NCBI GenBank assembly: GCA_024638385.1
Contig: JAHEKJ010000231.1
Coordinates: 71,835-135,834 of the forward strand
Reading direction: 5' to 3'
Length of the DNA: 64,000 nt
From: Gammaproteobacteria bacterium
Lineage (GTDB): Bacteria > Pseudomonadota > Gammaproteobacteria > GCA-001735895
This document shows positions 4,628 to 55,469 of this stretch, piece by piece. The notes under the pieces were generated by a model. It ran no database searches and was not told the DNA's origin. It saw only the letters and a list, made by a program, of their open reading frames with translations. The number at the start of each line of letters is the position of its first letter. The first letter of the stretch is position 1. The position numbers and the translations under genes were made by a program.

Positions 4628-4646
4628 AGCCGCGAGGAGCGAATCC

Positions 4647-5429: not shown

Positions 5430-5430
5430 C

Positions 5431-6648: not shown

Positions 6649-6653
6649 CGGTT

Positions 6654-11524: not shown

Positions 11525-11542
11525 GATTTCACCCTCGCGGTT

Positions 11543-11965: not shown

Positions 11966-12132
11966 TGATCGGTTCCGCCAGCGGTTCCTGCACTCAGGCG
12001 AGAGTTTATCACCGGTCGCCCGGCGGGCCGTGATCTTTGTCGAATAGCGCGCGACCGCGCGAACGATGGCGTTTGGTCAGCGCCGGGGATTTGATTACCA
12101 TGGCGTTCCGATCGCTGCGAGACAACGCATCC

Positions 12133-15407: not shown

Positions 15408-15508
15408 GAGCTGTTCGCCAGAGCTTCGATACAACCGGCACCAATATACCCGGCGAATCGGAGCTTTTGTTGTTGAATATCAATGCTCGCCCGACTAGTT
15501 TACCGGCT

Positions 15509-35600: not shown

Positions 35601-37771
35601 GGCTCGACGGCGGCGACGAGGCGCCGGAGGCACCGGCCGAATCCCTGCCCGATGCGGCCGCGGCCGCGCCGACCGTACTGGTCGCCGACGACGACGATGC
35701 GTTTCGCCTCACCACGAGCGAGGCGTTCAGGGGCGCCGGGTTCCGGGTCGTCGAGGCGGACAGCGGGGAAGCGGCGCTGTCGGTGCTCGCCGAATCCTTG
35801 CCCGATCTCGTCCTGCTGGACGCAATCATGCCCGATGTCGAGGGTTTCGAGGTTTGCCGGCAGCTGCGTAAAAAGCACGATGCGCGCGCGGTCCCGGTCA
35901 TGATCCTGACCGGGCTCGGCGACATGGAGTCGGTCAACCGGGCCTTCGAATCGGGCGCCACCGACTTTATCGTCAAGCCCGTGAACCATTCGGTGCTGAC
36001 CTCGCGCGTTCGCTTCCAGCTGCGCGCCGCGGCAACGCAGCGAAAACTCCAGATCAGCCAGCAGTGGCTGGCGAGCGCGCAACGGATAGCTCGCGTCGGC
36101 TACTGGCAGTGGAATTCCGCCAGCGACGATTTCGAGTTCTCTCCACAGCTCACGGAAATGCTCTCGCTGGGCGACAGCCCGGGCGCGCGCAAGCTGGATG
36201 ACTTCATCGAAATGATCCACCCGGAGGATCGCGAGTTCATTCGAAACACGATCGTCAATGTCGGCATCGGCGGCGAGCCCGGTTCCTGCGACTATCGTCT
36301 GAACACCCTCGAGTCGAAGACGCTGATCGTGCACCAGGAGCTGGCGCGACCGCGCGAGTCCGGCGATATCGTGCTGGGGACGGTGCAGGATATCACCCGG
36401 CAACGCGAGTCGGAGAGGAGGATCCGCCAGCTCGCCTATTCCGACGAATTGACCGGGCTCGCGAGCCGCGCTTATTTCCACAAACACCTGGAGGACGTGA
36501 TCAAGGCCGCGCACCGCCGCAGCGAACGTTTCGCGCTGATGTTCCTGGACCTTGATGGGTTCAAGGACGTGAACGACAGCCTGGGCCACGACGCGGGCGA
36601 CATGTTGCTCAAGGAAGTCGCCCAGCGGCTTCGGGATGCCTTGCGCGAAACCGACTTCGTCGCGCGCCTGAGCGGCGACGAATTCTGCATCATGGTCGAC
36701 GACATTACCGACCAGTACGACGCGGCCCATGTCGCGAGCCGCTGTCTCGAGGCACTGAATGCGCCGATACGGCTGGGGCACCAGACCATCCGCCCGCGCT
36801 GCAGCATCGGTATCGCCTATTACCCGGCCGACGGCGAGGAATCCAAGGCCTTGCTGAAGGCGGCCGACAGCGCGATGTACGCTGCCAAGGAGGCCGGCAA
36901 ACACCGTTACGTGTTCTATCAGCCGGAGTTCACCGAAAAAGCCGAAAGCCGGCTGACGATCGAACAGGACCTGCGCCAGACCATCGACAACGACGAGCTC
37001 GAGCTGCATTACCAGCCGCAGATCGACGTCAGGAGCGGCCGCATGGTCGGGGTCGAGGCCCTGATTCGCTGGAATCACCCGGAGCGCGGGCTGATCCCGC
37101 CCGGGGACTTCATCGAAATCGCCGAGCGCACGCGGTTCATCAAACCGATGGGCGCGTGGGTACTGAATACGGCGTGCCGCCAGGCCATGGAATGGCGCGC
37201 CATGGGATTGCCCCACTTCCGCATGGCGGTGAATATTTCGTCCAGCCACTTCCGCGATCCCGATTTCCCCGACATGGTCGAACAGGCGATTACGGACAGC
37301 GGCTTTCCCGGCGCGGCGCTCGAGCTCGAGATCACCGAAAGCGTGACCCAACCCACCGCGGAAAACCTGTCGATCTTCGACCGGCTCAAGGCCATGGGGA
37401 TCAAGATCGCAATCGACGACTTCGGCACCGGATACTCGTCGCTGGCGTCGTTGAAACATCTTCCCATCGACCAGCTCAAGATCGACCGGGCCTTCATCAT
37501 CGACATCATCGAGGACCCGAAGTCGTCCATACTGCTCGGCACGATCGTCGGCGCCGCGCATGCGCTGGGGCAGACCGTGGTCGCCGAGGGGGTCGAGGAA
37601 GAAAATCAGGTGAAGGTTCTGGGCGCGCTGGGTTGCGATATCATCCAGGGCTATTACTTCAGCAAGCCGGTCCCCGCCGACGCCATCCCCGAACTGTCGC
37701 TGCGCGAATTCTCGAGCCGTTGCGGATCGGCCGGACCGCAACGCCCCGAACGGCAGGCGAAGACCGGATGA
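32630..37771 (+). CDS. 1713-aa hybrid sensor kinase / phosphorelay / diguanylate cyclase-phosphodiesterase (PAS-PAS-HisKA-HATPase-REC-REC-HPt-REC-PAS-GGDEF-EAL)
   Basis: Single uninterrupted ORF. Hand-mapped motifs: H-box SHEIRTP (His364), REC Asp654 ([11 protein letters not shown]), REC Asp790 ([11 protein letters not shown]), HPt His937 ([12 protein letters not shown]), REC Asp1064 ([11 protein letters not shown]), SGDEF at 1348-1352 with RETD I-site, EAL at 1476-1478. Confidence 0.92.
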
Positions 37772-38634
37772 GCGCCAGCCCGACGACCGCCGAAGCGCCC
37801 TGCTTGCAGCGGCTCAGCACGCTGAAATTGCCGACCCTGCCGGCCGGGACGCTGTTCCTGTTCGAATCCCTGACCAACGAGCATATCGACTTCGCCGAAC
37901 TGGCCGGGGTACTGGAAAAATTTCCGAGCATTGCCGGCAAGCTGATATCGCTGGCCAACTCGGTCTGGTCGGCGCCCACCTCTGAAGTGACCTCACTGGA
38001 GAACGCCTGCGCGCGCCTCGGTTTCGGCGTCGTTCGAAGCACCAGCATCGCGCTCGCGATCGCCGCCCCGTTCGATTCGGCGAGGTGCCCTTCGTTCGAT
38101 CCCGAGCGCTATTGGTGCAGCGCCCTGTTGACCGCGGATGCCGCTTCGCGATTGGCGCTCGCGGTGTCCGTCGACGTCGGGCTAGAGCCTTCGACCGCCC
38201 GCGCCGCTGGGCTGTTGCACGAACTGGGCCTGCTGTGGCTGGTCGACAAGCTGCCCGACGAGGTCGATCAGGCCCTCGTCATGGTCGAGAAACAGCTCGA
38301 GGCAAACCTGCAATTGGCGCTGTCGCGGGTGCTGGGCTTCGACCAGGAAAAAGCGACGGCCCGTCTCGCCGACGCCTGGGGTCTGCCCGAAACCATGGCC
38401 AGGGCGATGACGCATTATCGTGATATCGGATATCGGGGCCCGCAAGAAGCGATAGTCGCTAACGTCGGGCTGGCGGTTACGCTGGTATCGGCGATTCTCG
38501 CGGACCAGCCCTGCCCGCCGCCCGATGGGCGCTTGCCGGCCCTCGGCATCGCGGCAGCGCATTTCGCCGAAATCCATGCGACGCTGGCAGGGCAACTGGA
38601 AAGAACCAGGGCAGTCGCCAGGGTACTGGTCTGA
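37768..38634 (+). CDS. HDOD-domain signalling protein
   Basis: Start taken at ATG 37768, which overlaps the upstream stop as ATGA. HDOD pattern: [42 protein letters not shown]. Confidence 0.8.
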
Positions 38635-38733
38635 TTGTCCGTACCGGCTCGGAACCCGGCAAATATCGCGTCTCCCGCCCATCGCCTCGAGAGAGGACCC
38701 GCTCGGCCAGGATAATCATGATAGCCGCGAGGA

Positions 38734-38793
38734 TGGTGCCCAGGGGCGGAATCGAACCGGTCCGCGCTCGGCACCGACACGGGGATTTTCAGT
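38734..38793 (-). repeat. Partial duplicate of the tRNA-Phe 3' half (distal att-like direct repeat), split by a 14-nt insertion
   Basis: 38734..38758 is identical to 49422..49446 (25/25). 38773..38793 is identical to 49447..49467 (21/21). The insertion ggtccgcgctcggc lies at 38759..38772. No 5' half of a tRNA is present. Confidence 0.85.
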
Positions 38794-38985
38794 ACGAGCT
38801 GCGAAGTAAAAAGCTCTATTTTTCAAAAACTTAAGGGGCGTCCGTTGCGGGACTCTGCATTACGAATGCATAACCGTGCACAACTGATCCCCGCAAAACT
38901 CCGTGCGAAACAGGGTTGGCGCAGGCGGTGATACCTTCATATTTAGCTACGATTGGAAGAGCCTGGTTATCAACCAGCTGCTCGC

Positions 38986-40209
38986 TTAATTTTCCAGGGT
39001 CAGGGCATGATCTTCGGTTAGCTGCAAACGGATTCCCATAGATCGGCCTTCGCGGTTCAGGGTTTCCTGCAGCCACAGGCTGTCGCCTTCCGCGGCATGC
39101 CGCAGACTGAATTGTTTGATTTGCATCGGTACCAGCTTCAATTGAATCAGTTTTCCGGAGCCGGGATCGATATCGGCGAAATACATTAGCACCAGGTCAT
39201 CCCGGTATTCCTCATAACCACTAATACCTTCATAGTCATTGATGAAATCACCACTGCCATAAATAATCAGTTTGCCGTTATATACTTCGAGCGGCTTTGG
39301 ATGATGTGAAGAATGACCATAGATAACATCGACGCCAGCTTCATCGATAAGTCGATGGGCAAAATCGATATGGCCCCGGGGAATGGCATAGCCCCAGTTA
39401 CTGCCCCAATGAATGGAGGCAACAACGATATCGCCAGCCTGCTTCAAGGTGCCGACCTGTTGCTTGACCCGCCGCACGGTGCGGGCTGTCATATTTGGCA
39501 ACAGGTTCACGCCCGCTTTATCCGCCTGCGCCGCCCACTCAGATGGAATGCCGCTTGATCGGAAGCCATAGGAATACACGATGACTCTACCTTTCTCTGC
39601 CACATCGATAATCGCAGCCTGTTCCGCCTGCCGCCGATTCTCGCCCGCGCCTGAAAACCTGATCTTGCTGCCTGCTAATGAAGCCAGTGTTTCCGTGAGC
39701 CCGGAGTAACCCCAATCAAGCACGTGGTTATTCGCGAGCGAGCAGTAATCGATACCGGCTTCGGCAAGACAGCCAATATTTTTGGGATGCATCTTGTAAT
39801 GAATTCCCTTACCCGGCCAATAGTCATGGCTCGTGGTAACGCTTGTTTCCAGGTTTATGAGTCTCACATCCGGCGCGATCCGTTGCCATTCCAGCAATGC
39901 CTCTCCCCAGAGCGTCTTACATTGTAATGGCGTCTGAATCGGGCCATTAACGGCTTCTGCCAGCGCAACATAACGCCTCGCATCTTTAACGAACGACTCA
40001 TGTAAACGAGGATTACCCGGATAGGGTAATGCCTGGTCGATACCGCGCCCGGTCATGACATCACCGGCCATGAACAGGGTAATGATGTGACTTCCGGGCA
40101 TCTTTGCAGCATACGCCACTGTTGGCAGACCCGCAGTAACAAGTAACAGGACAAAGCTGTAGAGTCCGAATTTGCCAGGCACCAGGATGTTCAGCACATG
40201 TTTCGTCAA
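38986..40209 (-). CDS. CapA-family protein (poly-gamma-glutamate synthesis / metallophosphatase-like)
   Basis: 407 aa with an N-terminal membrane anchor. Pattern: LFMAGDVMTGRGID, INLETSVT, CSLANNHVLDWG, ASIHWGSNWG, IYGHSSHHP. Confidence 0.75.
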   Translation of the reverse strand: MTKHVLNILVPGKFGLYSFVLLLVTAGLPTVAYAAKMPGSHIITLFMAGDVMTGRGIDQALPYPGNPRLHESFVKDARRYVALAEAVNGPIQTPLQCKTLWGEALLEWQRIAPDVRLINLETSVTTSHDYWPGKGIHYKMHPKNIGCLAEAGIDYCSLANNHVLDWGYSGLTETLASLAGSKIRFSGAGENRRQAEQAAIIDVAEKGRVIVYSYGFRSSGIPSEWAAQADKAGVNLLPNMTARTVRRVKQQVGTLKQAGDIVVASIHWGSNWGYAIPRGHIDFAHRLIDEAGVDVIYGHSSHHPKPLEVYNGKLIIYGSGDFINDYEGISGYEEYRDDLVLMYFADIDPGSGKLIQLKLVPMQIKQFSLRHAAEGDSLWLQETLNREGRSMGIRLQLTEDHALTLEN

Positions 40210-40214
40210 ACCTG

Positions 40215-40564
40215 CTATTCCTTGAACCGCAACAAATCTTGAAGCATCCTTTCAAGCCCCTGAACGACATGGCCCATCCTGCCATAATCGACTTTGTCCA
40301 GGGTATCCTGTGGCATGTGGCAATAAGGAAATCGATACAATGCGGTATCCGTGAACATGACTGCGGGATAGCCCTGTTTCCGGATGGACCTGTGATCAGA
40401 CCAGTCGACCCCGGGGATGAAGGCCGGGGCGGCAATCCCCTCTGACGCGAAGGTTGCATGTGCCCTGAAAGCGCCAGGAAAGCGCCAGGAAAGCGCGTCA
40501 CCAGGCTACGGGAGCGCAGATTGCCGACAAAAGCAATGAAATTTCCCTGGTTCGGATACAACAA
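40215..40564 (-). pseudogene. 5'-truncated, frameshifted remnant of an M28-family metallopeptidase gene
   Basis: Two reverse-strand frames carry consecutive M28 C-terminal sequence (see the 40215..40564 finding for the two peptides). They are separated by an 11-bp tandem duplication at 40471..40492. Confidence 0.6.
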
Positions 40565-40602
40565 ACCGAACGATAGCCTAAAAAAAGCTAAGCCTTTTAA
40601 GA

Positions 40603-41739
40603 TCAGGTGCCATTGTCAGTCTCACCAAGCCGTGCAACACGATGCGTTATCCCGGTTACGATTTCGTAATTAATCGTCCCGAGTATGTCCGCCAGTTCGT
40701 CCGCGCCGATCTCTGCCTCGCCCTGCCGGCCGATAATCACGACTTCGCTGCCCAGGCCGACACGGCCGCGCAGCCGGGTAACGTCCAGCAAACTCTGGTC
40801 CATGGTGATGCGTCCTACCTGTGGACAGCGCAGCCCCCCAACCAGGACTTCGAACCGGTTGGAAAGGTTGCGGTTGAGACCATCGCCATAACCCAGCGGG
40901 ATGGTCGCAATCAACGAAGGCTGCGTGGTGTGAAAGCTATGGCCGTAACTCAGGCCGACACCGACAGGCACTTCCTTGAGCATGGTGATCTGTGTTTTCC
41001 ATTCCAGTACTGGCTTCAGCTCATTAACCAACGGATTGGCAATTTCCCGGGAAGGACGCAATCCGTACATGGCGATTCCCGGTCGCACCGCGTCAAAATA
41101 CGAGCCCGGCAAATCCAGAATCCCGGCGCTGTTTGCCAGATGGCATATCTCTATGCCGCAAGATCTGGCTAGCGCCGCCAGACCCTGAAATCGCCTGATT
41201 TGTTCATGGGAGAGCGTCTTGTCTTTCTCATCGGCACAGGGAAAGTGGCTCATAAGCCCGCGTACCCGTAATCTCGGAAATGCCTGACATTGTGCCAGGA
41301 AGGACTGGACTTCGGACGGCGTAACACCAATCCGCCCCATACCCGTGTCCACCATGAGATGCACCGAAATTTGCCGGTCGGCCTTTTCCGCCTCGACCAC
41401 CAGTGACTCCACCATCTCCATGGTGCACACCGCAGGTTCACAACCATAGGCGACGATTGCCTCACTGTGCTCGGGAAGTGTGGCTGATAACAGCAAATAA
41501 TTTGCGTGCAGGCCTGCGTCAACAAGTACCACCGCTTCGCTGATATGGGCAACACAGATGGTGTCGTAGCCCGACTTGAGCAGGTGGCGGGCAACGAGTT
41601 CCATTCCATGCCCATAGCCATTCGCCTTGATGGCCGGCCACATGGGCCGCGCTCCGACCAGATTCTGTAACAGACGCAGGTTATGCGTCAGCCGGTCGAG
41701 GTGGATATGAGCCCTGCTGAGGTGGCGTGTCTCACTCAT
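40603..41739 (-). CDS. alr: Alanine racemase
   Basis: 378 aa. PLP-lysine motif AIKANGYGHG and typical C-terminal TINYEI. Confidence 0.9.
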   Translation of the reverse strand: MSETRHLSRAHIHLDRLTHNLRLLQNLVGARPMWPAIKANGYGHGMELVARHLLKSGYDTICVAHISEAVVLVDAGLHANYLLLSATLPEHSEAIVAYGCEPAVCTMEMVESLVVEAEKADRQISVHLMVDTGMGRIGVTPSEVQSFLAQCQAFPRLRVRGLMSHFPCADEKDKTLSHEQIRRFQGLAALARSCGIEICHLANSAGILDLPGSYFDAVRPGIAMYGLRPSREIANPLVNELKPVLEWKTQITMLKEVPVGVGLSYGHSFHTTQPSLIATIPLGYGDGLNRNLSNRFEVLVGGLRCPQVGRITMDQSLLDVTRLRGRVGLGSEVVIIGRQGEAEIGADELADILGTINYEIVTGITHRVARLGETDNGT

Positions 41740-41741
41740 AA

Positions 41742-42833
41742 CTACCGGTCCACCCGCAGGTCTTTGCTCAGTGGATACTTTTTCACATATTCCGAAGTCA
41801 TTGCCGCAACCAGGGCACTGTAGTTGGGCACGAAACTTAGCTCGTCGCCGATGCGAAAAGCCGCGGTCGCAGCGGTCATATCGACAATCAAATAGCCGCT
41901 GGAAGCACCAACAATGCTAATACCCGGCTCACGGGGTGTAAGGCCAGCCACATCTACATCTTCGCGACCCAGGTTCAACAGCCCCCGCAACACTACACCC
42001 CGATCCTCGAATTGCGGCAATCCGCCGAAAGCATCTTCGCCTCGATCGCCGACGGGAAGCGATGGTTTATTTTTAATTTCCAAAATTTCGGCATGAATCA
42101 CGAAGGCATCCTGGAAGGTATCCGGCCAGGGCTTGCGTTGCGTGGTTTCACGGCCGAGCAGGATGGCTTCGCCGATACGGGCATGGTTAATCCTTGCCGG
42201 CATCTTGCCCGCCGCGATCAACTCGAGTCCGCTGGAGTTTATGCCGGAAATCCATTCCAGCGTGAGGCCGAAGGTCTGCTCTATCTCAACCGCAAGCTCC
42301 ACCAGGCCCCGCATATTTTCTGCGCCGGGCACAACCCCGCCAAAACAGGCCAGATTAGTGCCCAAACCCTTGATACGGATACCCGGCAATGCGATCGCGG
42401 CGCGCACCAGCGAGACCAGATCATCCGGCCAGACGCCTTCCCGCAAATCGCCCAGATCCACCATGACTATCACATCATGGATTCGATTGTGGCGCTGCGC
42501 CGCATCAGACAAGGCTTCCATTACGCCGAACTCCGAGTTCAGGCTGACATCCACCTTCTCGACCACGGCATCCACCGTGCTTATGGCTGGAATCCGCACC
42601 ATCATAAACGCCGTATCCACGCCAGCCGCCTGCATCCGCTGGATATTTTCCAGGCGTGAATCCGCAATCGAGGAAACGCCACCACGCAGCATTGCGCTAG
42701 CAACATCCGGTTGACCACAGGTTACTTTGGTAACACCGGTTACTTCGATGCCGTTTGTCCGGCACAGACTAACAATGGTGCGGGCATTGTGCTCAATTTT
42801 CTCGAGATCCATGGTCACCCTGGGAGTCATCAT
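41742..42833 (-). CDS. orr: Ornithine racemase-like PLP enzyme (alanine racemase N-terminal domain family)
   Basis: Start taken at MMTPRVTMDLEKIEHNARTI (ATG 42833), 4 nt after the oraE stop. GVTKVTCG carries the PLP lysine. About 363 aa. Position directly after oraSE matches ornithine-degradation clusters. Confidence 0.7.
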   Translation of the reverse strand: MMTPRVTMDLEKIEHNARTIVSLCRTNGIEVTGVTKVTCGQPDVASAMLRGGVSSIADSRLENIQRMQAAGVDTAFMMVRIPAISTVDAVVEKVDVSLNSEFGVMEALSDAAQRHNRIHDVIVMVDLGDLREGVWPDDLVSLVRAAIALPGIRIKGLGTNLACFGGVVPGAENMRGLVELAVEIEQTFGLTLEWISGINSSGLELIAAGKMPARINHARIGEAILLGRETTQRKPWPDTFQDAFVIHAEILEIKNKPSLPVGDRGEDAFGGLPQFEDRGVVLRGLLNLGREDVDVAGLTPREPGISIVGASSGYLIVDMTAATAAFRIGDELSFVPNYSALVAAMTSEYVKKYPLSKDLRVDR

Positions 42834-42837
42834 CGCC

Positions 42838-45027
42838 CTATTCCGTTTCACGTAATCTGCGCACGATGAAACTGGCCACGTCCTGCCCGGTCGTACCCCG
42901 ACCGAATCCAGCATCCAGGCCGCATTCACGTGCCAGGTCGTCGGTTACCTGGGTGCCGCCGGCAACGAGCAGCAAATGCTCCCGCAGTCCACGCCCGGTG
43001 GCCAGTTCATGCAGGTGCCGCATGTGCTGCCGATGTATATCCGCGTGGGTGACGATAGTGGAGATCAGTACCGCACGGGCACCGGTTTGTTCGGCTACAT
43101 CGAGAAGGCGCGCCACGGGTACCGAGGTGCCCAGATCATGGCAATAAAAGCCGTACTTTTCGATGCCGCCGTGTTTGATATCGAGAATTTCGTGCAGCCC
43201 CACCGAGTGTTCATCTTCGCCCACCGTAGCCGCCACCAGGTGAATGTCACGCGGACGCACCCAGGCCTCGATCTCCTCATCCCCCAGAACTTCGACAGGT
43301 TGCGGCATCGGTAGCTGATCGATGGCGATGGCAACATCGAGCACCCCCTTGATTTCGAACATGCTGCCCTCCGCCGGGTGCATGACCCTGCGGTTGATGA
43401 CCTTCGGATCCTGCAGCCCCATGTGTACCGCCATTTGCAGCGCCGCCGCTTCGGCCACTCGCGGACTCTCAGGCACAAACAGTGTCACGCAAACGATATT
43501 GTCACCGTGTTTTTCAACCTCGGGCCGCAGTAAGCCTTCATTGCGTTCCGCGAGAGTCCGCTGCAAACGATTGGTCACGTTATCGTCGGCGTCCAGTTCA
43601 TCGATGTACTGGATCTTTGCCGGATCACACAGGGTGCAGCCGCCATAGCCGTCGCATTGCTTGCCCGCGCCCTGATCATAGCTATTGTTACCGAAATGAC
43701 TGCAGACCGGCGCGCCATAGTCGGGGGCACGCGCGATTACCGTACCTGCACCATCACCGCTATCGGGATCACGCACGATGCCGTCGCCTTTGCGTTCCGG
43801 GAAGAATCCCTGGTCGACAAACTGGCCCGCCGCCACCGCCGCATAATAACCACCGTTCTCCAGGATCTCCTCCACGAACAACACGGCGCGCTCTTTGAGT
43901 TCACGCGCCTGCTGTCGCAACGGCCCATCGTCTTTCAACGTAAGTTGCTCCGCCAACCCATCGATACCCATGAGCGTCTGCCGCGCCGTGTTCACACCAG
44001 CAACATTGTTATAATGCCAGGGAATATTACGGCCCTCATCCGGCGTGATCGTGCTCTGGATATCGGTTGTGGTCAGCCGTGAAATCAGCGTGTCGAGAAC
44101 ATGCGTGACGCTGGCCTCCACCGTGTCAGCCTCCATGTAACGGGTATTTTGCTGGGCGCGGAACCGGTACCCTGCAAAAAGTTCGCGCAGGGCGACGGCG
44201 TAAGGCAGGTCGAGTCGCAGCTTCGGTGCCGGCGGTGCGGTGGGCGGTACCGTCGACAATGCAATCAATTCCTGCGGCATCCCCGCCGCGCGCGAATAGG
44301 CACAATTGATCGCATGTTGTACAAACAGTTCCGGCGTGACCTTCCAGGCCTCCTTGGCGGTGGCGTTGGCATTATGCGCGCCGTCCAACTGCAGGATGCC
44401 GGCATCCGCCAGCACTCGCTTGGCCTCGGCAGCATCGATGAAGGAGCGGTGCATATTGACGTCACGGTAAAGCACGTTGTACTGGGGATCCTGATGCGCA
44501 CCATTGACACCCTCCTCGGCGAACAGCACGGCAATGTCCGGGCCGGCGAGACCGCTCACATAAGAATGAAAATTGATCGGCCTGCCTACTTCGTCTTCGA
44601 TGGCATCGAGTGCCTTACGCGTGGCACGTATTTGTTTGCGTGAAATGGGAATCCCGCCAACACCTTCCGGAGTACCCTCGACCAGGCCATCGATATGGGA
44701 TTGGCCGGTAGTGCGAATCACCATTATATGGTCAGCGCCATGCCAGGCCGCCATGCGCATTCGGCGCAGGTCATCCTCGAAACGTCCGGAGGCAATCTCC
44801 GTGGTAATCACCATGTCACACTGCGGATCTATGTTTCCGAAATAATGTGCGGCAGCCAGTGGCACGGAACGCTCGAGACTGGCGGAACTATTTTTATAAA
44901 CGAAGGGCCCGAGCTGCTGGTTTTCGATTTTCCGACGCCAGCTCCAGCCTTTGCGTTTCGGCCGATACCGATCCAGATCCCTGAGGACCTCTTCCACATC
45001 GAGTTTCTGCTCGGGATCAAGCTTCAT
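42838..45027 (-). CDS. oraE: D-ornithine 4,5-aminomutase large subunit (AdoCbl- and PLP-dependent)
   Basis: 729 aa. Long stretches recognisable as OraE (TTEIASGRFEDDLRRMRMAAWHGADHIMVIRTTGQSH, VNGAHQDPQYNVLYR, TVPPTAPPAP). C-terminal B12-binding DxHxxG motif (VGEDEHSVGL). Confidence 0.88.
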   Translation of the reverse strand: MKLDPEQKLDVEEVLRDLDRYRPKRKGWSWRRKIENQQLGPFVYKNSSASLERSVPLAAAHYFGNIDPQCDMVITTEIASGRFEDDLRRMRMAAWHGADHIMVIRTTGQSHIDGLVEGTPEGVGGIPISRKQIRATRKALDAIEDEVGRPINFHSYVSGLAGPDIAVLFAEEGVNGAHQDPQYNVLYRDVNMHRSFIDAAEAKRVLADAGILQLDGAHNANATAKEAWKVTPELFVQHAINCAYSRAAGMPQELIALSTVPPTAPPAPKLRLDLPYAVALRELFAGYRFRAQQNTRYMEADTVEASVTHVLDTLISRLTTTDIQSTITPDEGRNIPWHYNNVAGVNTARQTLMGIDGLAEQLTLKDDGPLRQQARELKERAVLFVEEILENGGYYAAVAAGQFVDQGFFPERKGDGIVRDPDSGDGAGTVIARAPDYGAPVCSHFGNNSYDQGAGKQCDGYGGCTLCDPAKIQYIDELDADDNVTNRLQRTLAERNEGLLRPEVEKHGDNIVCVTLFVPESPRVAEAAALQMAVHMGLQDPKVINRRVMHPAEGSMFEIKGVLDVAIAIDQLPMPQPVEVLGDEEIEAWVRPRDIHLVAATVGEDEHSVGLHEILDIKHGGIEKYGFYCHDLGTSVPVARLLDVAEQTGARAVLISTIVTHADIHRQHMRHLHELATGRGLREHLLLVAGGTQVTDDLARECGLDAGFGRGTTGQDVASFIVRRLRETE

Positions 45028-45377
45028 AACGGCAGGTTCTCCCAGTATCGTCCCGCCAGCAGCGCGTTACCCGCCTCGCGCACGGAAATACCTTTTTTCC
45101 TGGACAGCTCCAACACAAGGCGCCCTGCGCCATGGCCAAGCAGTCCGTGTTGCCCGATGGCATCGACCAGCGCCCCGGCCTCGAGACTCGAAAAACCCAT
45201 GCGCAACAATACCGAGCGCTCGATAGACGGCGTCGTGTGAGTGCGCGCCTCTTCGATCAGGGGTTCGACGATTTTTTCCACCAGGCTCCAGAAATGCGCA
45301 TGCAGCTCTTCATCCGAGAGACCGCGCAAGCGCTGGCGGCGCGCTGCAAAGTCGTCTTCTCGCTCAGGACATTTCAT
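45024..45377 (-). CDS. oraS: D-ornithine 4,5-aminomutase small subunit
   Basis: Start taken at MKCPEREDDFAARRQRL (ATG 45377), about 117 aa. ATGA overlap with the oraE start. Size and position fit OraS. Confidence 0.7.
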   Translation of the reverse strand: MKCPEREDDFAARRQRLRGLSDEELHAHFWSLVEKIVEPLIEEARTHTTPSIERSVLLRMGFSSLEAGALVDAIGQHGLLGHGAGRLVLELSRKKGISVREAGNALLAGRYWENLPL

Positions 45378-46776
45378 CGATAACCTCCTCGACGTAATCC
45401 TGGCTGCTGCGGGTTTCGGCGGCAAGAAATTCGATATCGACCTCGTTTAGACGAACACCCTCGGGGAGCGACTCGATGGCATTGCGCAAGTACGACCGCC
45501 TGACCTGGTCCAGGTCGATGTCGGCTACGGCGATCTGAGACGGACACTCCGGAATCACGATATTCTGCCCGGGTTTACTATCCCTGGGATCACCCCGCCG
45601 CACCTCGATACCCAGCTGTTTGGCAAGATTGAGTTGCGCCAGCGGATGCTTGCCGGCGCCGGTGTACTCGGTCTCCTGCACCACGACGATCCTGTCCCGG
45701 TCGAGTTCCCGGGCGATGGCAAAGGCGGCCGCGAGCGAAGTATTTCCGGCAGGCCCGCGCTCGAGCCCCTCCAGTTCCGCCAGAACCTGGGTAATGTAGA
45801 ACACCTCACCCTGGGTTACGGTGACAAAACGATCCATGTAGCGCAATGGCCGCGCGGCATTGCGCGGCACATCGGCACGATCCGGCCAGGTGGTGAACGG
45901 CATCGAGAAACCGGTGTGGCCGGTAGTAAACGATTTACGGTTGAAATCATGGTCCGATGCCATGTGCAGTCCGGCGAGATCGACGCTGGCGGCAATCACC
46001 CCGGTGTCCAGGGCTCCGGCTTGCTTGAGCCCCCGGGCTGTGCCCGTCAGATTGCCTCCGCCGGCGTGCGTGGCGATCACCAGGTCGGGATAGCGCCCGC
46101 ATTGCTGCTGCACCTGTTGAGCGAGTTCGTAGCCCAGGGTTTCGATCCCGAGTATTGAATACGGTGTGTAAAGCGAAGCGTTGAAGAAGCCGCTTTCCTC
46201 GAGCACGCCTAAAAAAACAAAAAACAGTTCCGGGCCGACCGAAACCCGAATGACTTCTGCGCCATAGGCCTCGCAGGCCCGGGTTTTCTCCGCAATTTCC
46301 GGTTGCGCGATACCTCGGCTGTCAAAAGCTTCCTGTACCACGACACAACGCAAGCCGGCCTTGGCTGCCTGTGACGCCACCGCGGCACCGAAATTCCCGC
46401 TGGTTGCCGCGGCGACACCGACATGACCACGGCTTTTGGCCTCGCGGACCGCCAACGCAGCGCGACGATCCTTGAACGAACCCGACGGATTGGCCGCTTC
46501 GTCCTTAACGAATATTCGCGCCCCTTTGCCAGGCTGGGCGACGGCACGCACCAGTGCGGTGATATTCTCGAGTTCCAGCAATGGGGTATCGCCGACCGCG
46601 GTACGGCGCTGCACCACGCGCACCTGATCGATCGTATAACCCGTGTCGCTAAGCAACCGTTCGTAGTCAAAGGCCAGCGCGCCGTTAGCGTATTGGCTAT
46701 AGTCGATGCCGAGCGATGCCTTGATGATTTCGTCCCGCCGTCCCATGATTTTGGCGTAACCGAATTCCCCGCTCAT
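45364..46776 (-). CDS. ortB: 2-amino-4-ketopentanoate thiolase beta subunit (PLP-dependent, tryptophan-synthase-beta fold)
   Basis: 470 aa. FVKDEAANPSGSFKDRRA (PLP lysine) and AATSGNFGAAVASQAA. Preceded by the small OrtA-like gene with an ATGA overlap. Confidence 0.78.
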   Translation of the reverse strand: MSGEFGYAKIMGRRDEIIKASLGIDYSQYANGALAFDYERLLSDTGYTIDQVRVVQRRTAVGDTPLLELENITALVRAVAQPGKGARIFVKDEAANPSGSFKDRRAALAVREAKSRGHVGVAAATSGNFGAAVASQAAKAGLRCVVVQEAFDSRGIAQPEIAEKTRACEAYGAEVIRVSVGPELFFVFLGVLEESGFFNASLYTPYSILGIETLGYELAQQVQQQCGRYPDLVIATHAGGGNLTGTARGLKQAGALDTGVIAASVDLAGLHMASDHDFNRKSFTTGHTGFSMPFTTWPDRADVPRNAARPLRYMDRFVTVTQGEVFYITQVLAELEGLERGPAGNTSLAAAFAIARELDRDRIVVVQETEYTGAGKHPLAQLNLAKQLGIEVRRGDPRDSKPGQNIVIPECPSQIAVADIDLDQVRRSYLRNAIESLPEGVRLNEVDIEFLAAETRSSQDYVEEVIDEMS

Positions 46777-47087
46777 CGGACCCGCCCCTGTTCACGGAGG
46801 ATGGCACGCACTTCTCCGCCTATGCCGGAGAGTTCGGGGATAGGCGGCCCGAAGCTGTGGTTGTAGGCGGGATTGGTTGCGATTAATCTGCCCCGCAGAC
46901 ACCTTCCCGTTAGCGTCTCGATCTCGGCCTCGTCACCCATGGCCGCAGCAGTGACGAGAAAGCCCTTCACTCGCAGTTCCAGGGGAACTTGCCGGGTATC
47001 CTCGGGCACCTGCGCCGCACGTTCTCCCGCATCCAGTGCAATTTTGTGGATCTCAACCCAGGCGCCCTGCGCGATCAGTTCAGACAT
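46773..47087 (-). CDS. ortA: 2-amino-4-ketopentanoate thiolase alpha subunit
   Basis: 104-aa ORF (AWVEIHKIAL ... VKGFL ... TNPAYNHSFG) of the size and position of OrtA, between the ord and ortB homologues. Confidence 0.65.
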   Translation of the reverse strand: MSELIAQGAWVEIHKIALDAGERAAQVPEDTRQVPLELRVKGFLVTAAAMGDEAEIETLTGRCLRGRLIATNPAYNHSFGPPIPELSGIGGEVRAILREQGRVR

Positions 47088-48147
47088 GCCTGACCTCGAT
47101 CAGTTCCTCGGGCAAGAAACGGCGCGCATCGGCCAGCATTGCAGCAGACACCGGCAGGTCCGCCATGCTGTGCAGTCCGGGTGCTGCATTCAGCACTCGT
47201 GGAATCGTGTTTACCGCAAGCGCCATGGTTGCCTGTCCTCCCGGAATTTCAGGACTGCCGGCAAGGCTAACATGTGGCGAGCCTTTTATTTCGATGCTGT
47301 CTCCAGTCTGAATACCCGCGAGTCGCGGCTCTATTTGCTGCGGATGAACAAGTGTAATTACCGGCATGCCGCCCACGTACGCTATCGCCGTGTGGTGACA
47401 ACCGGCTACCTGGCCGGGCTCTACGGCCACAAAGGCCGTGGCGCGTTTTACCTGCGAGACAATGGGCTCGCGCGTTTCCTGGATCTGCTCGATCTCCCAG
47501 CCGATAGCCCTGGCAATCATGTGCATCGACTCGATAAATCCGACATGTCCGACGATGGTGCCATTTTGCACACCCTCGTGAAACGCTTCCGGTGTCAGGC
47601 CCACACCCTGGCTCATGAGCACCGATGGGCCGTAAGGAGAAAGATCATTGATGCGTCTGGCCGTAATCGTGTGGATATCGGCGCATACCCCGGTCAGTGT
47701 AATTACCAGTAAATCGAGTATAAAACCAGGGTTAACACCGGTGCCGAGTATCGATATCCCGTGGCTGACTGCCTCCCAGTGCAGCGATTCCGCCAATGCC
47801 GGATATTTATGCCGGGGGTACGCCATCTCTTCGGCAATAGAGATGACGTTGATGCCGTGTCGTACCAGGGTGGATATTTCGCCTGCCGCATCGGTAGCAC
47901 GGGAACAGGTAGCCTGAATTGCCACCTCGGGTCGCGTTTCCTCGATGACCCTTTCGAGGTCAACGCTAATCGGAATGCCTAGCGCTTGATCGAGTCCTAT
48001 CGCCTGGCCGAGGTCCAAGCCAACACGATGAGCCCTTCTGCCAAAGGCTCCGACCAGCTCCAGGCCTCGTTTGGCAAGCACCATTCGGGCAATTCCAGAG
48101 CCCATTTGCCCGGTCCCTAAAATCAGCACTCGGATAGAATCTCGCAT
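47080..48147 (-). CDS. ord: 2,4-diaminopentanoate dehydrogenase (DapB-like NAD(P) oxidoreductase)
   Basis: Start taken at MRDSIRVLILGTGQMGSG (Rossmann), ATG 48147. Contains ILGTGVNPGF. First gene of the operon. Confidence 0.78.
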   Translation of the reverse strand: MRDSIRVLILGTGQMGSGIARMVLAKRGLELVGAFGRRAHRVGLDLGQAIGLDQALGIPISVDLERVIEETRPEVAIQATCSRATDAAGEISTLVRHGINVISIAEEMAYPRHKYPALAESLHWEAVSHGISILGTGVNPGFILDLLVITLTGVCADIHTITARRINDLSPYGPSVLMSQGVGLTPEAFHEGVQNGTIVGHVGFIESMHMIARAIGWEIEQIQETREPIVSQVKRATAFVAVEPGQVAGCHHTAIAYVGGMPVITLVHPQQIEPRLAGIQTGDSIEIKGSPHVSLAGSPEIPGGQATMALAVNTIPRVLNAAPGLHSMADLPVSAAMLADARRFLPEELIEVRHV

Positions 48148-48286
48148 ATGATTTTGGCTGCACCGCAACACGGCTATCTTATAAGCTGAATCGATAGCTT
48201 GATTGACGATCATCAGCTCCGTCTGCTTCAAATTGATCTAGATTTGCACAAATATGCCGACGCTGGATCCAGGCAGGAGGAAAACC

Positions 48287-48640
48287 ATGCAAACCATAGA
48301 AATCACTAGAGACAATTGGCAAAGCTTTTTCGACCAGGTTTCCAGAGCGCTACGGGGCAAACTTATCCAGATCGAAGTCGACAGCCTCGAACTGGGTGCC
48401 CAGATCGAAGTGGATAAATTGTCACTTAACGGCTTAACCTACGATGTAAAAGATGATGCGTTTATCGTCAGCACAGATGAAATCGAGCACGTTATCCGCT
48501 CACCGCAACAGATTTTTGCCGCTGACGGAAGCGACGGGATTAACAGCCTCAAGGTTCACTCGGCGGATGGTACCGAGCAAATAATCAACTTTTCGGAACC
48601 ACTGGCGCTACCGCCGTCGAATCAGGAAGAATCCGCATGA
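48287..48640 (+). CDS. DUF5335-like small protein
   Basis: Start taken at MQTIEITRDNW, preceded by AGGAGGAAAACC. IEV..LELGAQIEV...L.GLTYD pattern. Confidence 0.55.
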   Translation: MQTIEITRDNWQSFFDQVSRALRGKLIQIEVDSLELGAQIEVDKLSLNGLTYDVKDDAFIVSTDEIEHVIRSPQQIFAADGSDGINSLKVHSADGTEQIINFSEPLALPPSNQEESA

Positions 48641-48918
48641 GCCTGAGAGAGACCTATGAAAAGAAAATGCAGGCACAGCTTCACCAGGTGAAAACGGAGA
48701 TCGACGAACTCAGGGAAAAGGCCGATCAGGCGGAGACCAACCTGGAACTTGAATATTACACGCTAATCGAAGAACTGCATTTAAAACTGGACACAGCCAG
48801 TCAAAAGTTCCAATTGCTCAAGCAGGCCAGTGAGGAGAATTGGGATGAATTTAAATCCGAGTTCGAGACCGTCTGGAATTCACTACGTGAGCTGATTAAA
48901 TCAATAACTGCTCCCTGA
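48637..48918 (+). CDS. Small coiled-coil protein
   Basis: 93 aa, heptad-rich (KMQAQLHQVKTEIDELREKADQAE). ATGA overlap with the upstream gene. Confidence 0.5.
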   Translation: MSLRETYEKKMQAQLHQVKTEIDELREKADQAETNLELEYYTLIEELHLKLDTASQKFQLLKQASEENWDEFKSEFETVWNSLRELIKSITAP

Positions 48919-49068
48919 ACCCACCAGCCCTGGACGACTATCACAACTGATTCAAGATCTTTGGCAATACGCAATTCGTCGGTGGCGGCTGTCTGGTAAG
49001 ATTAGACTGGATGCGGAACTAAAATAAAACCAGTAAAAAATACACACGAAGTTAACCCGATTTCAGAG

Positions 49069-49296
49069 TTATGCCCTGACAAACAGGTATTCCGGCCCGT
49101 GCAGGCTGGACTGTCGTGGCGCAATCCAGAGAACCTGGACAGTGTCCTTGCCTAATTGGTCAATCAGAGCGCGAAGCAGATCCGTTTCAGTCAGAATGCC
49201 TGCAATCTAGCCATTGGCATCTACAACGGGCAGGCCTCCGATTCGACCATCGATCATTTGTTTGGTTGCCTCTGCCAGTAGTTCGCCAGGTGCCAT
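49069..49296 (-). pseudogene. Decayed CBS-domain gene fragment (in-frame TAG, upstream frameshift)
   Basis: Hand translation of the reverse strand: MAPGELLAEATKQMIDGRIGGLPVVDANG*IAGILTETDLLRALIDQLGKD. This is a typical CBS repeat interrupted by TAG (plus-strand cta at 49207..49209). The upstream CBS lead-in (YREIAHSGR) is in another frame. Confidence 0.5.
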
Positions 49297-49421
49297 AGTA
49301 ATTAGAACCGTCCTGAATGCGCGATTTCACGATAACTTTGAACCAGGATAGTCACGAAACAAGCGCTATCGCTGATGGACGACCCATGGACTATAAGTCC
49401 CCGTGTCATTCATCGGAATAA

Positions 49422-49497
49422 TGGTGCCCAGGGGCGGAATCGAACCACCGACACGGGGATTTTCAGTCCCCTGCTCTACCGACTGAGCTACCTGGGC
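49422..49497 (-). tRNA. tRNA-Phe (anticodon GAA), CCA encoded
   Basis: Reverse complement: GCCCAGGTAGCTCAGTCGGTAGAGCAGGGGACTGAAAATCCCCGTGTCGGTGGTTCGATTCCGCCCCTGGGCACCA. Folds as a canonical cloverleaf: acceptor GCCCAGG/CCTGGGC, D arm GCTC/GAGC, anticodon stem GGGGA/TCCCC, T arm GGTGG/CCGCC. Confidence 0.95.
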
Positions 49498-50772: not shown

Positions 50773-52782
50773 ATGTTCCGTCTCAAGGCAATTCTCCCGA
50801 CGATACTCGCGCTCGCGCTTGCCAGCGCCGGGTCCGCGGCGGCGCAACAGCTGGACGACGCCGGACTCGAGGCGCTGCTCGAAATTCTGGACCAGCAAAC
50901 CACCCTCGCGACCAGCAGCAAGCTCAACGCCGATTTCGTCCCCGGCATGGTCAGCGTGCTGAGCGCGCGCGAGCTCGAACGCCGCGGCCTGCGCGACCTG
51001 TGGGAAGCACTCGACCTGCTACCCGGCGTGCGCACCTATCTCAACGCCACCGGCATGCGCGCGATCACGGTACGCGGCATCGGCGACCTGTTCGAACCGG
51101 GCAAGGTCAAGCTGCTGCTCAACGGCGTGCCGCTCAACGCGTCGGCGAGCGCGACCACCGGCACGATCTTCGATACCCCGGTTGCGCAGATCGAGCGCAT
51201 CGAGCTGATCCGCGGCCCGGGCTCGGCCGTGCACGGCGAATTCGCCTATGCCGGCGTTCTCAATGTCATCACGCGCAAAGACATCACCCAATATGCCGCC
51301 GGCCTCGAGACCGGCGGCGGCAGCGCGGCGGCGTTATTCGATTTGACTCCGCCAAGCGGCGACTTCGAGGCGAGCCTGAATCTCGCGGTGCGCGCGAGCG
51401 ATGGCGAGGATATCGATTCCGGGCGCGATCGTGCCGGAGCCCTGCCGAGCAATGCGCCCGGTTCGATCAACAACCGACGAGAATTCGTTTCCGCGATCCT
51501 CGACGTCGAGGCCGGCGACTGGCACGGGCTCGTCCAGCTGCAGCGGCTCGGCCGGGGCGATTATTTCGGCAGCAACGACCTGTTGTCGCCCGACGCCTCG
51601 GGCGAGATCATCGTCCACGAAACGTTTTCCGCCGTACTGACCCGGAACTTCGGCTTCGGCGACGGTATCGACGGCGCCTGGACGCTCGGCGCGCTATACA
51701 ACCGGAGCGACAAGGACGGCCTGTTTCTCGGACCTCCCGAGGCCTTCGGCGGGCTGGCCGGCGACGCCGACGTGTTCGCCGATTCCGTGCTCGAGGAACG
51801 GCGGCTCGACGCCAAAGTCAGCCTGCGGGCGGTGCGCGGCGCGCATACCTGGTACGGCGAACTGTCGGGCGCATTGGTCAAGGCGCTCGAGTCCGAGCAG
51901 TCCGGCAACCTGGACCCGGACAATCCCAACCTCATTTCGCCGACGATCAACGATTTGCCGACACCGGTCGATGCCGGCGACGAGCGCAGGTCGATTAGCC
52001 TCGTACTGCAGGACGAGTACCGAATCGACGCCCTGACGACCCTGACTACCGGGCTGCGCCTCGACGACTACGAACACGTTGGCGAGCACCTGTCGCCGCG
52101 TATCGCGCTAGTGCATCGCTACGACGATAACCACGTCTTCAAGACCCAGCTGGCGCGCGCGTTTCGACCGCCGTCACTCATCGAGGAAGCGGGCGCGATC
52201 GGCGACATCGACCCCGAAATCAACGACACGATCGAGTTCGGCCATATCTTCGAGCGTGGCGACCGGGTCTTGCGCAACACGCTCTACTACACCCGTCTCG
52301 ACGACCTGATCTGGTTCCAGGACAGCCCGCCGTTCGGCTACCGCAACGTCGGCTCGCAGGAGCTGACCGGCTACGAAGTCGAACTCGAGCAAACCCTGGC
52401 CCCCGACTGGGACCTCAACGCGAGCCTGTCGCTACAGGACTATGCCGACGAGGGCCTGCCCGGCGAGACGCCGTGGATGCTAAAGCTCGGCATCGGCTAC
52501 ACGCTGGCGCCGCTGACCGATCTCTACGTGCAGCTCAACGCGATCGGCGAGCGCGATCGTGCAGAGGAGGACGCGCGCGGCGATTTCGAGCAGACGGCCC
52601 GGCTCGACCTGGCGCTACGCCGCCGGAATCTCGCCGGCGTCGGCGGACTCGATCTGCGTGCCGGTATCCGAAATTTGCTCGACGAGCGGCTCGAGTACCC
52701 GTCGCCGGCGGACACCTATCCCGGCGACTATCCCTACAGCGACGGCGCGCTGATATGGCTGCAACTGGTGTACCGGCCGTGA
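50773..52782 (+). CDS. TonB-dependent receptor
   Basis: 669 aa with a signal peptide. Plug-domain pattern (VSVLSARELERRGLRDLWEALDLLPGV, IERIELIRGPGSAVHGE) and a C-terminal beta-barrel ending in an aromatic-rich strand. Confidence 0.85.
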   Translation: MFRLKAILPTILALALASAGSAAAQQLDDAGLEALLEILDQQTTLATSSKLNADFVPGMVSVLSARELERRGLRDLWEALDLLPGVRTYLNATGMRAITVRGIGDLFEPGKVKLLLNGVPLNASASATTGTIFDTPVAQIERIELIRGPGSAVHGEFAYAGVLNVITRKDITQYAAGLETGGGSAAALFDLTPPSGDFEASLNLAVRASDGEDIDSGRDRAGALPSNAPGSINNRREFVSAILDVEAGDWHGLVQLQRLGRGDYFGSNDLLSPDASGEIIVHETFSAVLTRNFGFGDGIDGAWTLGALYNRSDKDGLFLGPPEAFGGLAGDADVFADSVLEERRLDAKVSLRAVRGAHTWYGELSGALVKALESEQSGNLDPDNPNLISPTINDLPTPVDAGDERRSISLVLQDEYRIDALTTLTTGLRLDDYEHVGEHLSPRIALVHRYDDNHVFKTQLARAFRPPSLIEEAGAIGDIDPEINDTIEFGHIFERGDRVLRNTLYYTRLDDLIWFQDSPPFGYRNVGSQELTGYEVELEQTLAPDWDLNASLSLQDYADEGLPGETPWMLKLGIGYTLAPLTDLYVQLNAIGERDRAEEDARGDFEQTARLDLALRRRNLAGVGGLDLRAGIRNLLDERLEYPSPADTYPGDYPYSDGALIWLQLVYRP

Positions 52783-55314: not shown

Positions 55315-55469
55315 CCGCAGGTCCGGAGTAATCGAATTCGTTTTGACCACCGGAGAGATTGCGCGGTCCGGCGTCCCGGCTCGGGGCCGTAATGACCGGG
55401 TAAATTCGTCGTTTCGATGAGCGTTTGCATTGCGATACGACGGCGCTACACTGGCAGACCGATTTAGGG

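Follow-up and report, generated by a model that had tools for sequence, protein, structure and literature searches.

How does a complete set of genes for the oxidative degradation of ornithine, a speciality of the clostridial Stickland fermenters, come to stand in the genome of a gammaproteobacterium, and is it likely to work there? The question is raised by a 64,000-nucleotide (nt) stretch of DNA from Gammaproteobacteria bacterium (contig JAHEKJ010000231.1, positions 71,835 to 135,834; hereafter the window), in which ord, ortA, ortB, oraS, oraE, orr and alr are packed one behind the other at 40603-48147. A first reading of the letters alone (the original prediction) had taken these genes for a Clostridium-type operon, horizontally acquired and unexpected in Proteobacteria. 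Our comparisons make it highly probable that they form a genuine, and probably functional, oxidative ornithine degradation operon, but one that belongs to a proteobacterial sub-lineage and is carried as cargo of an island in a tRNA-Phe gene. By sequence comparison, this sub-lineage has lost the GlmL-related 'Or-4' accessory gene, which encodes a putative reactivase, and usually carries alr. The pathway itself is known, and no new kind of system is involved, since the proteins already bear the right names from public annotation pipelines in metagenome-assembled genomes (MAGs) of Proteobacteria; what is new is the missing GlmL gene, the added alr, the proteobacterial host range and the carriage on an island.

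Operon layout and enzyme identities

The seven genes, in order of position, are the following (lengths in amino acids, aa; PLP, pyridoxal 5'-phosphate):

40603-41739, minus strand: alr, alanine racemase, 378 aa (TIGR00492)
41742-42833, minus strand: orr, ornithine racemase, 363 aa (NF040742, below its cut-off)
42838-45027, minus strand: oraE, D-ornithine 4,5-aminomutase large subunit, 729 aa (NF040743)
45024-45377, minus strand: oraS, D-ornithine 4,5-aminomutase small subunit, 117 aa (Pfam OAM_alpha, PF16552)
45364-46776, minus strand: ortB, 2-amino-4-oxopentanoate thiolase beta subunit, PLP-dependent, 470 aa (NF040741)
46773-47087, minus strand: ortA, 2-amino-4-oxopentanoate thiolase alpha subunit, 104 aa (NF040739 and Pfam OrtA)
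47080-48147, minus strand: ord, 2,4-diaminopentanoate dehydrogenase, 355 aa (NF040740)

Direct reading of the junctions in the DNA reproduced all seven positions and every overlap and gap that had been listed before. ord and ortA overlap by 8 nt (ATGTCTGA) and ortB and oraS by 14 nt (ATGAAATGTCCTGA); ATGA overlaps join ortA to ortB and oraS to oraE; and the two remaining junctions are gaps of 4 nt between oraE and orr (TAG-GGCG-ATG) and 2 nt between orr and alr (TAG-TT-ATG). The lengths of OraE and OraS, and the motif DEHSVG at residues 605-610 of OraE, were likewise as claimed. Such an arrangement of seven genes is not due to chance, and the genes may be translationally coupled, since start and stop codons overlap.

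Gene identity was judged by NCBIfam equivalog cut-offs and Pfam profiles, and the profile matches all extend over the full length of the proteins. Searches with each product upheld every assignment. OraE scores 1215.6 bits on NF040743 (cut-off 800) and matches the Pfam families Lys-AminoMut_A, OAM_dimer and B12-binding, with the TIM barrel, the dimerisation domain and the B12 Rossmann domain on a single polypeptide. OrtB reaches 785 bits on NF040741 (cut-off 550) and has the SFKDR lysine motif at residue 100, OrtA reaches 124 bits on NF040739 (cut-off 70), and Ord 456 bits on NF040740 (cut-off 400) as well as 310 bits on Pfam DAP_DH_C. OraS, encoded directly upstream of oraE, has no match among the NCBIfam models and is recognised by Pfam OAM_alpha (158.9 bits against 29.7). 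Alr scores 316.5 bits on TIGR00492 (cut-off 168), contains both Pfam racemase domains, and carries a lysine at 38 in KANGYGHG and a tyrosine in SYG at 264-266, the Lys/Tyr pair typical of alanine racemases. For Orr the assignment holds as regards its residues: Lys36 and Cys163, the two residues whose catalytic role in ornithine racemase is established (PMC13397332), are present, and neither column varies across 60 Orr sequences. It falls short as regards the profile, because NF040742, the best and a full-length match, gives 409 bits, under the cut-off of 480.

A possible objection is that the enzymes act on another diamino acid, such as lysine, beta-lysine or 2,4-diaminobutyrate, in a paralogous pathway. 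Orr lies under its equivalog cut-off and some relatives (see below) have no orr, both of which leave room for a different substrate. Nevertheless, we consider this very unlikely. OraE aligns with the Clostridium sticklandii ornithine aminomutase (PDB 3KOW) at 998 bits and with the KamD and KamE chains of lysine 5,6-aminomutase at about 125 bits, and on the lysine 5,6-aminomutase models it reaches 157 bits for NF052384 (cut-off 600) and 144 bits for NF052385 (cut-off 280). KamDE (PDB 1XRS, 8T0V, 9Q1A) resembles OraE in its PLP-binding TIM barrel and its B12 Rossmann domain with the base-off/His-on DxHxxG motif, but its two chains are separate polypeptides, one matching the N-terminal and the other the C-terminal part of OraE, and it has neither an OraS-type subunit nor the dimerisation domain of ornithine aminomutase; in the window, the KamD- and KamE-like regions both lie within the one 729-aa polypeptide. 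In the HMMER alignment with 3KOW, OraE conserves the equivalents of the DxHxxG histidine, the PLP lysine Lys629 and Glu338, together with the D-ornithine-binding residues Glu81, Tyr160, Ser162, His182, Tyr187, His225, Arg297 and Gln299; the residues that bind the carboxylate and the alpha-amine of D-ornithine in the crystal structure are all kept. (The list of active-site residues follows PMC3958899 and PMC4413051; after about residue 190 the numbering of 3KOW is offset by 3 from the published one, and residues were matched by sequence context.) In addition, Ord, OrtA and OrtB each exceed their equivalog cut-offs, and the linkage to ornithine carbamoyltransferase described below points to ornithine. 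Neither a lysine 5,6-aminomutase as best homologue nor the loss of a catalytic residue was thus found, and on these alignments OraE and OraS make up an ornithine aminomutase and not a lysine 5,6-aminomutase, as had been predicted.

Taken in the order drawn for Clostridioides difficile (PMC8803604), the predicted steps would be as follows. Orr, a PLP enzyme using Lys36 and Cys163, would racemise L-ornithine to D-ornithine, and OraS/OraE, with adenosylcobalamin (AdoCbl) and PLP, would move the 5-amino group to C4, giving (2R,4S)-2,4-diaminopentanoate. Ord would deaminate this product oxidatively to 2-amino-4-oxopentanoate, NAD(P)H and ammonia, and OrtA/OrtB, with PLP and CoA, would cleave 2-amino-4-oxopentanoate to acetyl-CoA and D-alanine, which the operon's Alr would then turn into L-alanine.

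One further feature of OraE concerns four cysteines, Cys442, Cys458, Cys464 and Cys467, which form a motif (APVC-x15-C-x5-C-TL-C) between the TIM barrel and the dimerisation domain. In an alignment of 48 OraE sequences from the loci L001-L086, this motif is kept in nearly all lineages; one of the four cysteines is left in the crystallised C. sticklandii enzyme, and the motif is partly missing in the Halanaerobiales type and in Muiribacterium. The motif may bind a metal and contribute to stability, and this site would then have no counterpart in the organism that serves as the structural model.

A tRNA-Phe island and its donor

The operon lies within an island whose remaining features are these (GC3, G+C content at third codon positions; ORF, open reading frame):

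38733-38793, minus strand: distal attachment-site repeat, a partial copy of the tRNA-Phe 3' half (exact-match search and sequence reading)
38986-40209, minus strand: CapA/PGA_cap-family gene, 407 aa, intact cargo (Pfam PF09587, 257 bits; GC3 0.56)
40220-40577, minus strand: 3'-end remnant of a peptidase M28 gene, last ~116 codons (Pfam PF04389 on the translated remnant)
48254-48640, plus strand: DUF5335 gene, 128 aa, divergent, cargo (Pfam PF17269, 115 bits; syntenic with locus L085)
48637-48918, plus strand: ORF of unknown function, 93 aa, cargo (86% nucleotide identity to L085 5932-6262; no Pfam match)
49069-49296, minus strand: CBS-domain pseudogene with an in-frame stop (translation; Pfam CBS, 39 bits)
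49422-49497, minus strand: tRNA-Phe (GAA), the integration target, 3' end towards the island (ARAGORN; Rfam, 70 bits)

Because tRNA-Phe stands at one end and a repeat of its 3' half at the other, the island can be delimited to about 10.7 kb (38733-49446), and its layout is the classic one for elements that integrate into the 3' half of tRNA genes. The distal repeat consists of 26 nt (38733-38758) identical to 49421-49446, a 14-nt insertion, and 21 nt identical to 49447-49467. Composition changes with the borders: G+C is 0.53-0.59 in the island against 0.62-0.69 outside it, the drop falling between 38 and 50 kb, and GC3 is 0.56-0.69 in every gene from 38986 to 48918 against 0.80-0.95 in host genes. 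Both measures fall over 38.9-49.4 kb, G+C starting from 0.64-0.66. The horizontal acquisition that had been proposed is therefore borne out by the tRNA gene and its repeat and by the shifts in G+C and GC3, with no integrase left.

In its insertion at a 3' end, its distal direct repeat, its deviant composition and its cargo of a metabolic operon, the island is like the tRNA-targeted islands (tRNA-Phe and others) that carry a P4-type integrase; unlike them, it retains no integrase, excisionase or other mobility gene, and its repeat is interrupted. The 14-nt insertion in the repeat implies that the island is probably fixed, and the in-frame stop in the CBS-domain pseudogene implies that it is decaying. 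The M28 remnant, which shares 86% nucleotide identity with the end of the corresponding gene in L081 and 78% with that in L085, is a deletion scar that starts about 25 nt past the alr stop codon. Besides the operon and the DUF5335 gene, the CapA/PGA_cap gene is the only intact island gene of a recognisable family. In L085 the last ~60 codons of the capA-like gene survive, and M28 is the reverse, whole in L085 and a remnant in the window. Carriage of the operon on a plasmid was considered and rejected, the sole match in PLSDB being a chromosome-sized Acetoanaerobium record. On the host side of the distal repeat (window 32630-38634) lies a gene for a multi-domain sensor of 1713 aa, which combines histidine kinase, several receiver, HPt, PAS and GGDEF-EAL domains; next comes an HDOD-domain gene, whose end is ~100 nt short of the repeat; the sensor/HDOD pair is syntenic in metagenomic relatives.

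Where the island came from is indicated by its nearest relatives. OraE has its closest relatives, at 92-95% identity, on metagenome contigs of gammaproteobacterial type. Over 7,565 bp (48147-40583), L081-L083 share 91.4% nucleotide identity with the window, a match that begins at the ord start codon and stops 20 nt beyond the alr stop, with different flanks on either side. L085 is syntenic with nearly the whole island (window 38892-48959), including the DUF5335 gene, the 93-aa ORF, the M28 gene and the capA-like 3' end, the last of which matches L085 15852-16128 by blastn. The G+C of these donor-like contigs, ~0.53-0.61, is that of the island and unlike that of the host. Their genes for ornithine carbamoyltransferase (OTC), archease and RtcB are 74-78% identical in nucleotides to the host copies at 10-15 kb, and because of this identity the donor was a relative: on sequence evidence, a related gammaproteobacterium of lower G+C, and not a Firmicute. 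The island was copied from such a lineage, and the integrase and most neighbours of the operon were lost later.

The shared region is itself collinear, window 10094-15434 and L081 14441-19485 having OTC, the intervening genes, archease and RtcB in synteny, and the host carbamoyltransferase has as its named matches only entries called 'MAG: Gammaproteobacteria bacterium', at 81-82% identity. A nitroreductase upstream of ord in L081, L085 and L086 was tried as a BluB or B12-related enzyme and rejected; it has a SagB-type dehydrogenase domain instead.

The proteobacterial clade, its missing GlmL gene and alr

The wider distribution of the operon was surveyed in one genome per GTDB species, which gave 80 loci, and all seven genes were mapped in each. 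Fifteen GTDB species have an OraE 76-81% identical to that of the window: Granulosicoccaceae, two Nitrosomonas, two Sedimenticola, Methylococcaceae, the isolate Methylomicrobium lacus 22M6SE5-12, several unclassified Gamma-, Alpha- and 'Delta'-proteobacteria, Binatia and Deferrimicrobiaceae. OraE of this proteobacterial type also occurs in Betaproteobacteria, and the protein databases hold more than 120 metagenomic clusters at 78% OraE identity or more. The claim that the operon is unexpected in Proteobacteria is therefore overstated: it is a member of a clade in which Proteobacteria dominate.

All 15 clade species have orr directly after oraE. At the other loci, in Desulfobacterota, Spirochaetes, Firmicutes, Actinobacteria, Riflebacteria and others, a 1.4-kb gene usually stands between the two; its product is the 'GlmL-related ornithine degradation protein' (NF040744, 549 bits; Pfam MutL, 472 bits), and tblastn finds it in 55 of these 65 loci. 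By the same method no GlmL homologue was found in the 64-kb window or in L001-L013, L017, L020 and L081-L084, and no MutL-family gene is called in L085 or L086. The original prediction was thus right to report a missing reactivase, although the absence is not peculiar to this island and is a trait of the whole clade. In a neighbour-joining tree of OraE, rooted at the midpoint, without bootstrap, and containing the window, the 15 GTDB species, L081, L085 and L086 (L082-L084 were left out), all 19 of the included loci without the GlmL-related gene form one group, which sits within a set of GlmL-bearing lineages (Desulfobacterota, Spirochaetes and the like), far from Firmicutes and Actinobacteria. 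The simplest reading of this pattern would be that the accessory gene was lost once, at the origin of the clade.

These results also bear on whether a Clostridium-type operon was taken directly from an anaerobic Firmicute, which would be phylogenetically startling. The characterised examples are clostridial, as are all the papers we found that name these genes, searches combining the enzyme names with those of proteobacterial taxa having returned none, and the survey of Phillips et al. (2025) places the catabolic Orr cluster mostly in Firmicutes, actinobacteria and thermotogae. If such a transfer had occurred, however, OraE should be closest to the Firmicute versions. It is 61-66% identical to these, for the most part, as to the actinobacterial and other distant ones, against 76-81% to many proteobacterial genomes and 92-95% to the contigs of gammaproteobacterial type. 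In the tree, which was built as the original prediction had advised, it falls into a proteobacterial clade with Desulfobacterota and Spirochaetes as sisters; gene order is unlike that of Firmicutes, with the GlmL gene gone and alr added; and the donor-like contigs share 74-78% nucleotide identity with the host in OTC, RtcB and archease. A direct Firmicute origin is accordingly extremely unlikely, and the label 'Clostridium-type' has to be given up in favour of a proteobacterial type received from a related gammaproteobacterium.

How far does this type differ from the canonical one? Fonknechten et al. (2009) is the defining paper for the oxidative ornithine cluster of Clostridium (Acetoanaerobium) sticklandii. 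We took the canonical clostridial gene content from NCBIfam names and the locus survey. In C. sticklandii and C. difficile the cluster comprises ord, ortA, ortB, oraS, oraE, the GlmL-like or-4 and orr (PMC8803604, Pruss et al. 2022). The window shares with it the six enzyme genes and their relative order, the cofactor motifs, the active-site residues, the predicted chemistry and the frequent linkage to genes of arginine and citrulline catabolism, at protein identities of 40-66%. Unlike it, the window has no GlmL-related gene, whether between oraE and orr or elsewhere within reach, has alr as a seventh gene, has no transporter and is carried on a tRNA-Phe island, and the hosts of its clade are Gram-negative, mostly Proteobacteria, nitrifiers, methanotrophs and sulfur oxidisers among them. 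Nearest outside the clade are the GlmL-bearing operons L015, L016, L018, L019, L021 and L022, from Desulfobacterota, Spirochaetes and 'Proteobacteria bacterium F1-120', with an OraE 69-73% identical to that of the window; unlike the window, they keep the 1.4-kb gene between oraE and orr.

That alr is a linked last gene, as had been claimed, is supported by its position behind orr in all of the closest relatives and in 9 of the 13 clade species whose downstream sequence extends far enough. Clade copies of alr are 62-68% identical to that of the window, those of orr 59-69% and the alr genes of other phyla 36-42%; the GlmL-bearing sister L018 has a co-linear alr, 61% identical. Since its identities resemble those of orr, alr appears to have travelled with the operon.

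It may be asked whether this gene serves to recycle D-alanine at all. Alr could be a broader racemase that supplies D-ornithine and makes orr dispensable, or it could divert D- or L-alanine to cell-wall synthesis. Consistent with the former, L086, a complete gammaproteobacterial MAG (CP070646.1), has no orr and carries alr directly after oraE (12195-13331); in L085 orr is internally deleted, residues 1-53 and 130-169 remaining (12195-12548), with alr intact; and in loci of Halanaerobiales type, which are without orr, an alr-like gene comes straight after oraE. Yet Alr of the window scores 316 bits on the alanine racemase model (cut-off 168) but only 27 bits with the model for Orr, it shows the Lys/Tyr pair usual in alanine racemases and lacks the Cys found in Orr, and the window's own orr is intact and under purifying selection. 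We therefore regard these other roles of Alr as unlikely and retain D-alanine recycling as its predicted function. The loss of orr in L085 and L086 implies either that orr is dispensable in some hosts or that the module can erode or work differently.

Among the clade members found, only Methylomicrobium lacus 22M6SE5-12 (L012, chromosome 1729955-1748126) is a cultured isolate. Its operon, which is without alr, forms a patch of 0.60-0.69 G+C adjoining DNA of 0.46-0.52 G+C, and this difference suggests horizontal transfer into M. lacus too. Downstream of the operon in this genome are a CstA transporter and a transporter of the MFS family. The flanks of the Nitrosomonas, Sedimenticola and M. lacus loci hold no conserved transporter or B12 genes, and clustering of all clade flanks returned OTC, carbamate kinase (CK), a fatty-acyl-AMP ligase and a nitroreductase as the only recurrent neighbours.

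Other arrangements occur further afield. L037, L056, L057 and L060 (Halanaerobiales and one Bacillota MAG) have the GlmL-like gene between ortB and oraS and the alr-like gene directly after oraE, its product 40-42% identical to the window's Alr, with no orr within reach. L042, L043, L047, L052 and L072 (Riflebacteria and similar) have oraS-oraE and, in the available flanks, no ord, ortA, ortB, orr or GlmL gene; the mutase of these five loci may serve another pathway, or the genes may be dispersed.

Function, ornithine supply and implications

The genes of the operon are under purifying selection. Compared with the 91%-identical copy in L083, dN/dS is 0.09-0.28 across the seven genes (ord 0.09, oraE 0.09, ortB 0.14, oraS 0.26, orr 0.17, alr 0.16), values that average over both lineages. 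These seven genes are intact, and the neighbouring island genes are pseudogenes or remnants.

Several observations nevertheless weigh against a genuine, functional operon that arrived on an island. Neither the island ORFs nor six-frame translations of the borders, which yielded CBS and M28 remnants only, contain an integrase or mobility gene; no empty site was found, the contigs of six metagenomic relatives of the HDOD gene (60-76% identical) ending before any tRNA; and there is no regulator inside the island and, as had been noticed from the start, no transporter and no reactivase. A search for a sigma-70-like promoter upstream of ord and for an intrinsic terminator flanking the operon gave nothing convincing, with counts at or below the shuffled expectation, although a consensus promoter scan is weak evidence in an organism of 64% G+C. 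The 64-kb window holds no cobalamin riboswitch, BtuB or cob gene. The lack of a GlmL homologue matters because ornithine aminomutase undergoes suicide inactivation, at a rate about 10 times lower than that of lysine aminomutase (PMC3958899). To these points are added the score of Orr under its cut-off, the loss of orr in L085 and L086, and an OraE tree built by neighbour joining without bootstrap.

One explanation of these absences is that the operon is silent or useless cargo on a dead island, in a host without AdoCbl supply, reactivase or promoter, and has simply not yet mutated. The missing integrase and the decay of the other island genes, the lack of a promoter-like site upstream of ord and of B12 uptake or synthesis genes or a riboswitch in 64 kb, and the orr genes already lost elsewhere would all fit. 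The pattern of damage does not: each of the seven ORFs spans its profile in full, dN/dS is low (averaged, as noted, over both lineages), and deletions reach both ends of the operon and none falls inside it. Moreover, the promoter scan carries little weight at this G+C, and the host has the OTC-CK pair that accompanies the operon elsewhere. We judge silent cargo to be improbable, and proceed from an operon that is probably functional.

What would supply its ornithine? Outside the island, the host has two genes arranged as an arcB-arcC-like pair:

13476-14408, minus strand: carbamate kinase, host, directly downstream of OTC (NF009008, 470 bits against 361; TIGR00746, 381 against 358)
14409-15434, minus strand: ornithine carbamoyltransferase, host (NF003286, 530 bits against 515)

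OTC, CK or both stand beside the operon in six clade species (L002, L003, L005, L007, L011 and L020), with the order orr-alr-OTC-CK in L005 and L007; the same neighbours occur in several Firmicute and actinobacterial loci as well as in the sisters L018 and L022, and L081-L083 have a 108-aa OTC fragment after alr. Because this linkage recurs, the most likely source of ornithine would be citrulline or arginine, through phosphorolysis of citrulline by the host pair. OTC and CK would turn citrulline or arginine into carbamoyl phosphate, yielding ATP, and into ornithine that feeds the operon, so that pair and operon together would make up an ATP-yielding route for low-oxygen conditions; a role in the aerobic assimilation of carbon and nitrogen may be an alternative.

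The TRAP, TonB-dependent receptor and AsmA genes that had been listed among the host's are present, and the cytochrome genes were not confirmed. The TonB-dependent receptor (50773-52782) was tried as a BtuB and rejected, at 79 bits against a cut-off of 600. At 350-7469 lies a catabolic cluster with a TRAP transporter (DctP, DctQ, DctM), an enoyl-CoA hydratase and a CaiB-type CoA-transferase, together with a homologue of the BhcA-like aspartate-glyoxylate aminotransferase (460 bits, below the cut-off of 650). A radical SAM enzyme of the AmmeMemoRadiSam system (222.6 bits against 220) is encoded at 55425-56558, downstream of a GGDEF-EAL protein.

It is tempting to generalise from this locus, and we do so tentatively. 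The operon without the GlmL gene and with alr could be a distinct B12-dependent form that needs no reactivase and is spreading horizontally among respiring Proteobacteria (ammonia oxidisers, methanotrophs, sulfur oxidisers), where it would serve the fermentation or assimilation of ornithine, citrulline and arginine at oxic-anoxic interfaces; we hold this to be possible but doubtful. If it is true, a GlmL-like protein is dispensable for ornithine aminomutase in vivo, and a Stickland speciality of clostridia becomes a common capability of environmental Proteobacteria. For annotation, the practical point is that current models name the genes correctly: the surprise lies in their distribution and in the gene content of the operon, not in a new enzyme.

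The loss of the GlmL-like gene throughout the clade provides a natural experiment on whether ornithine aminomutase needs a reactivating chaperone, and the recurrent alr offers a genetic answer to the fate of the D-alanine end product. If the operon is functional, a B12- and PLP-dependent route of amino-acid fermentation known only from anaerobic Firmicutes extends to many environmental Proteobacteria. Its hosts include supposed obligate aerobes and chemolithotrophs, such as Methylomicrobium and Nitrosomonas, and the finding would therefore bear on how such organisms survive anoxia and on the demand for cobalamin in the environment.

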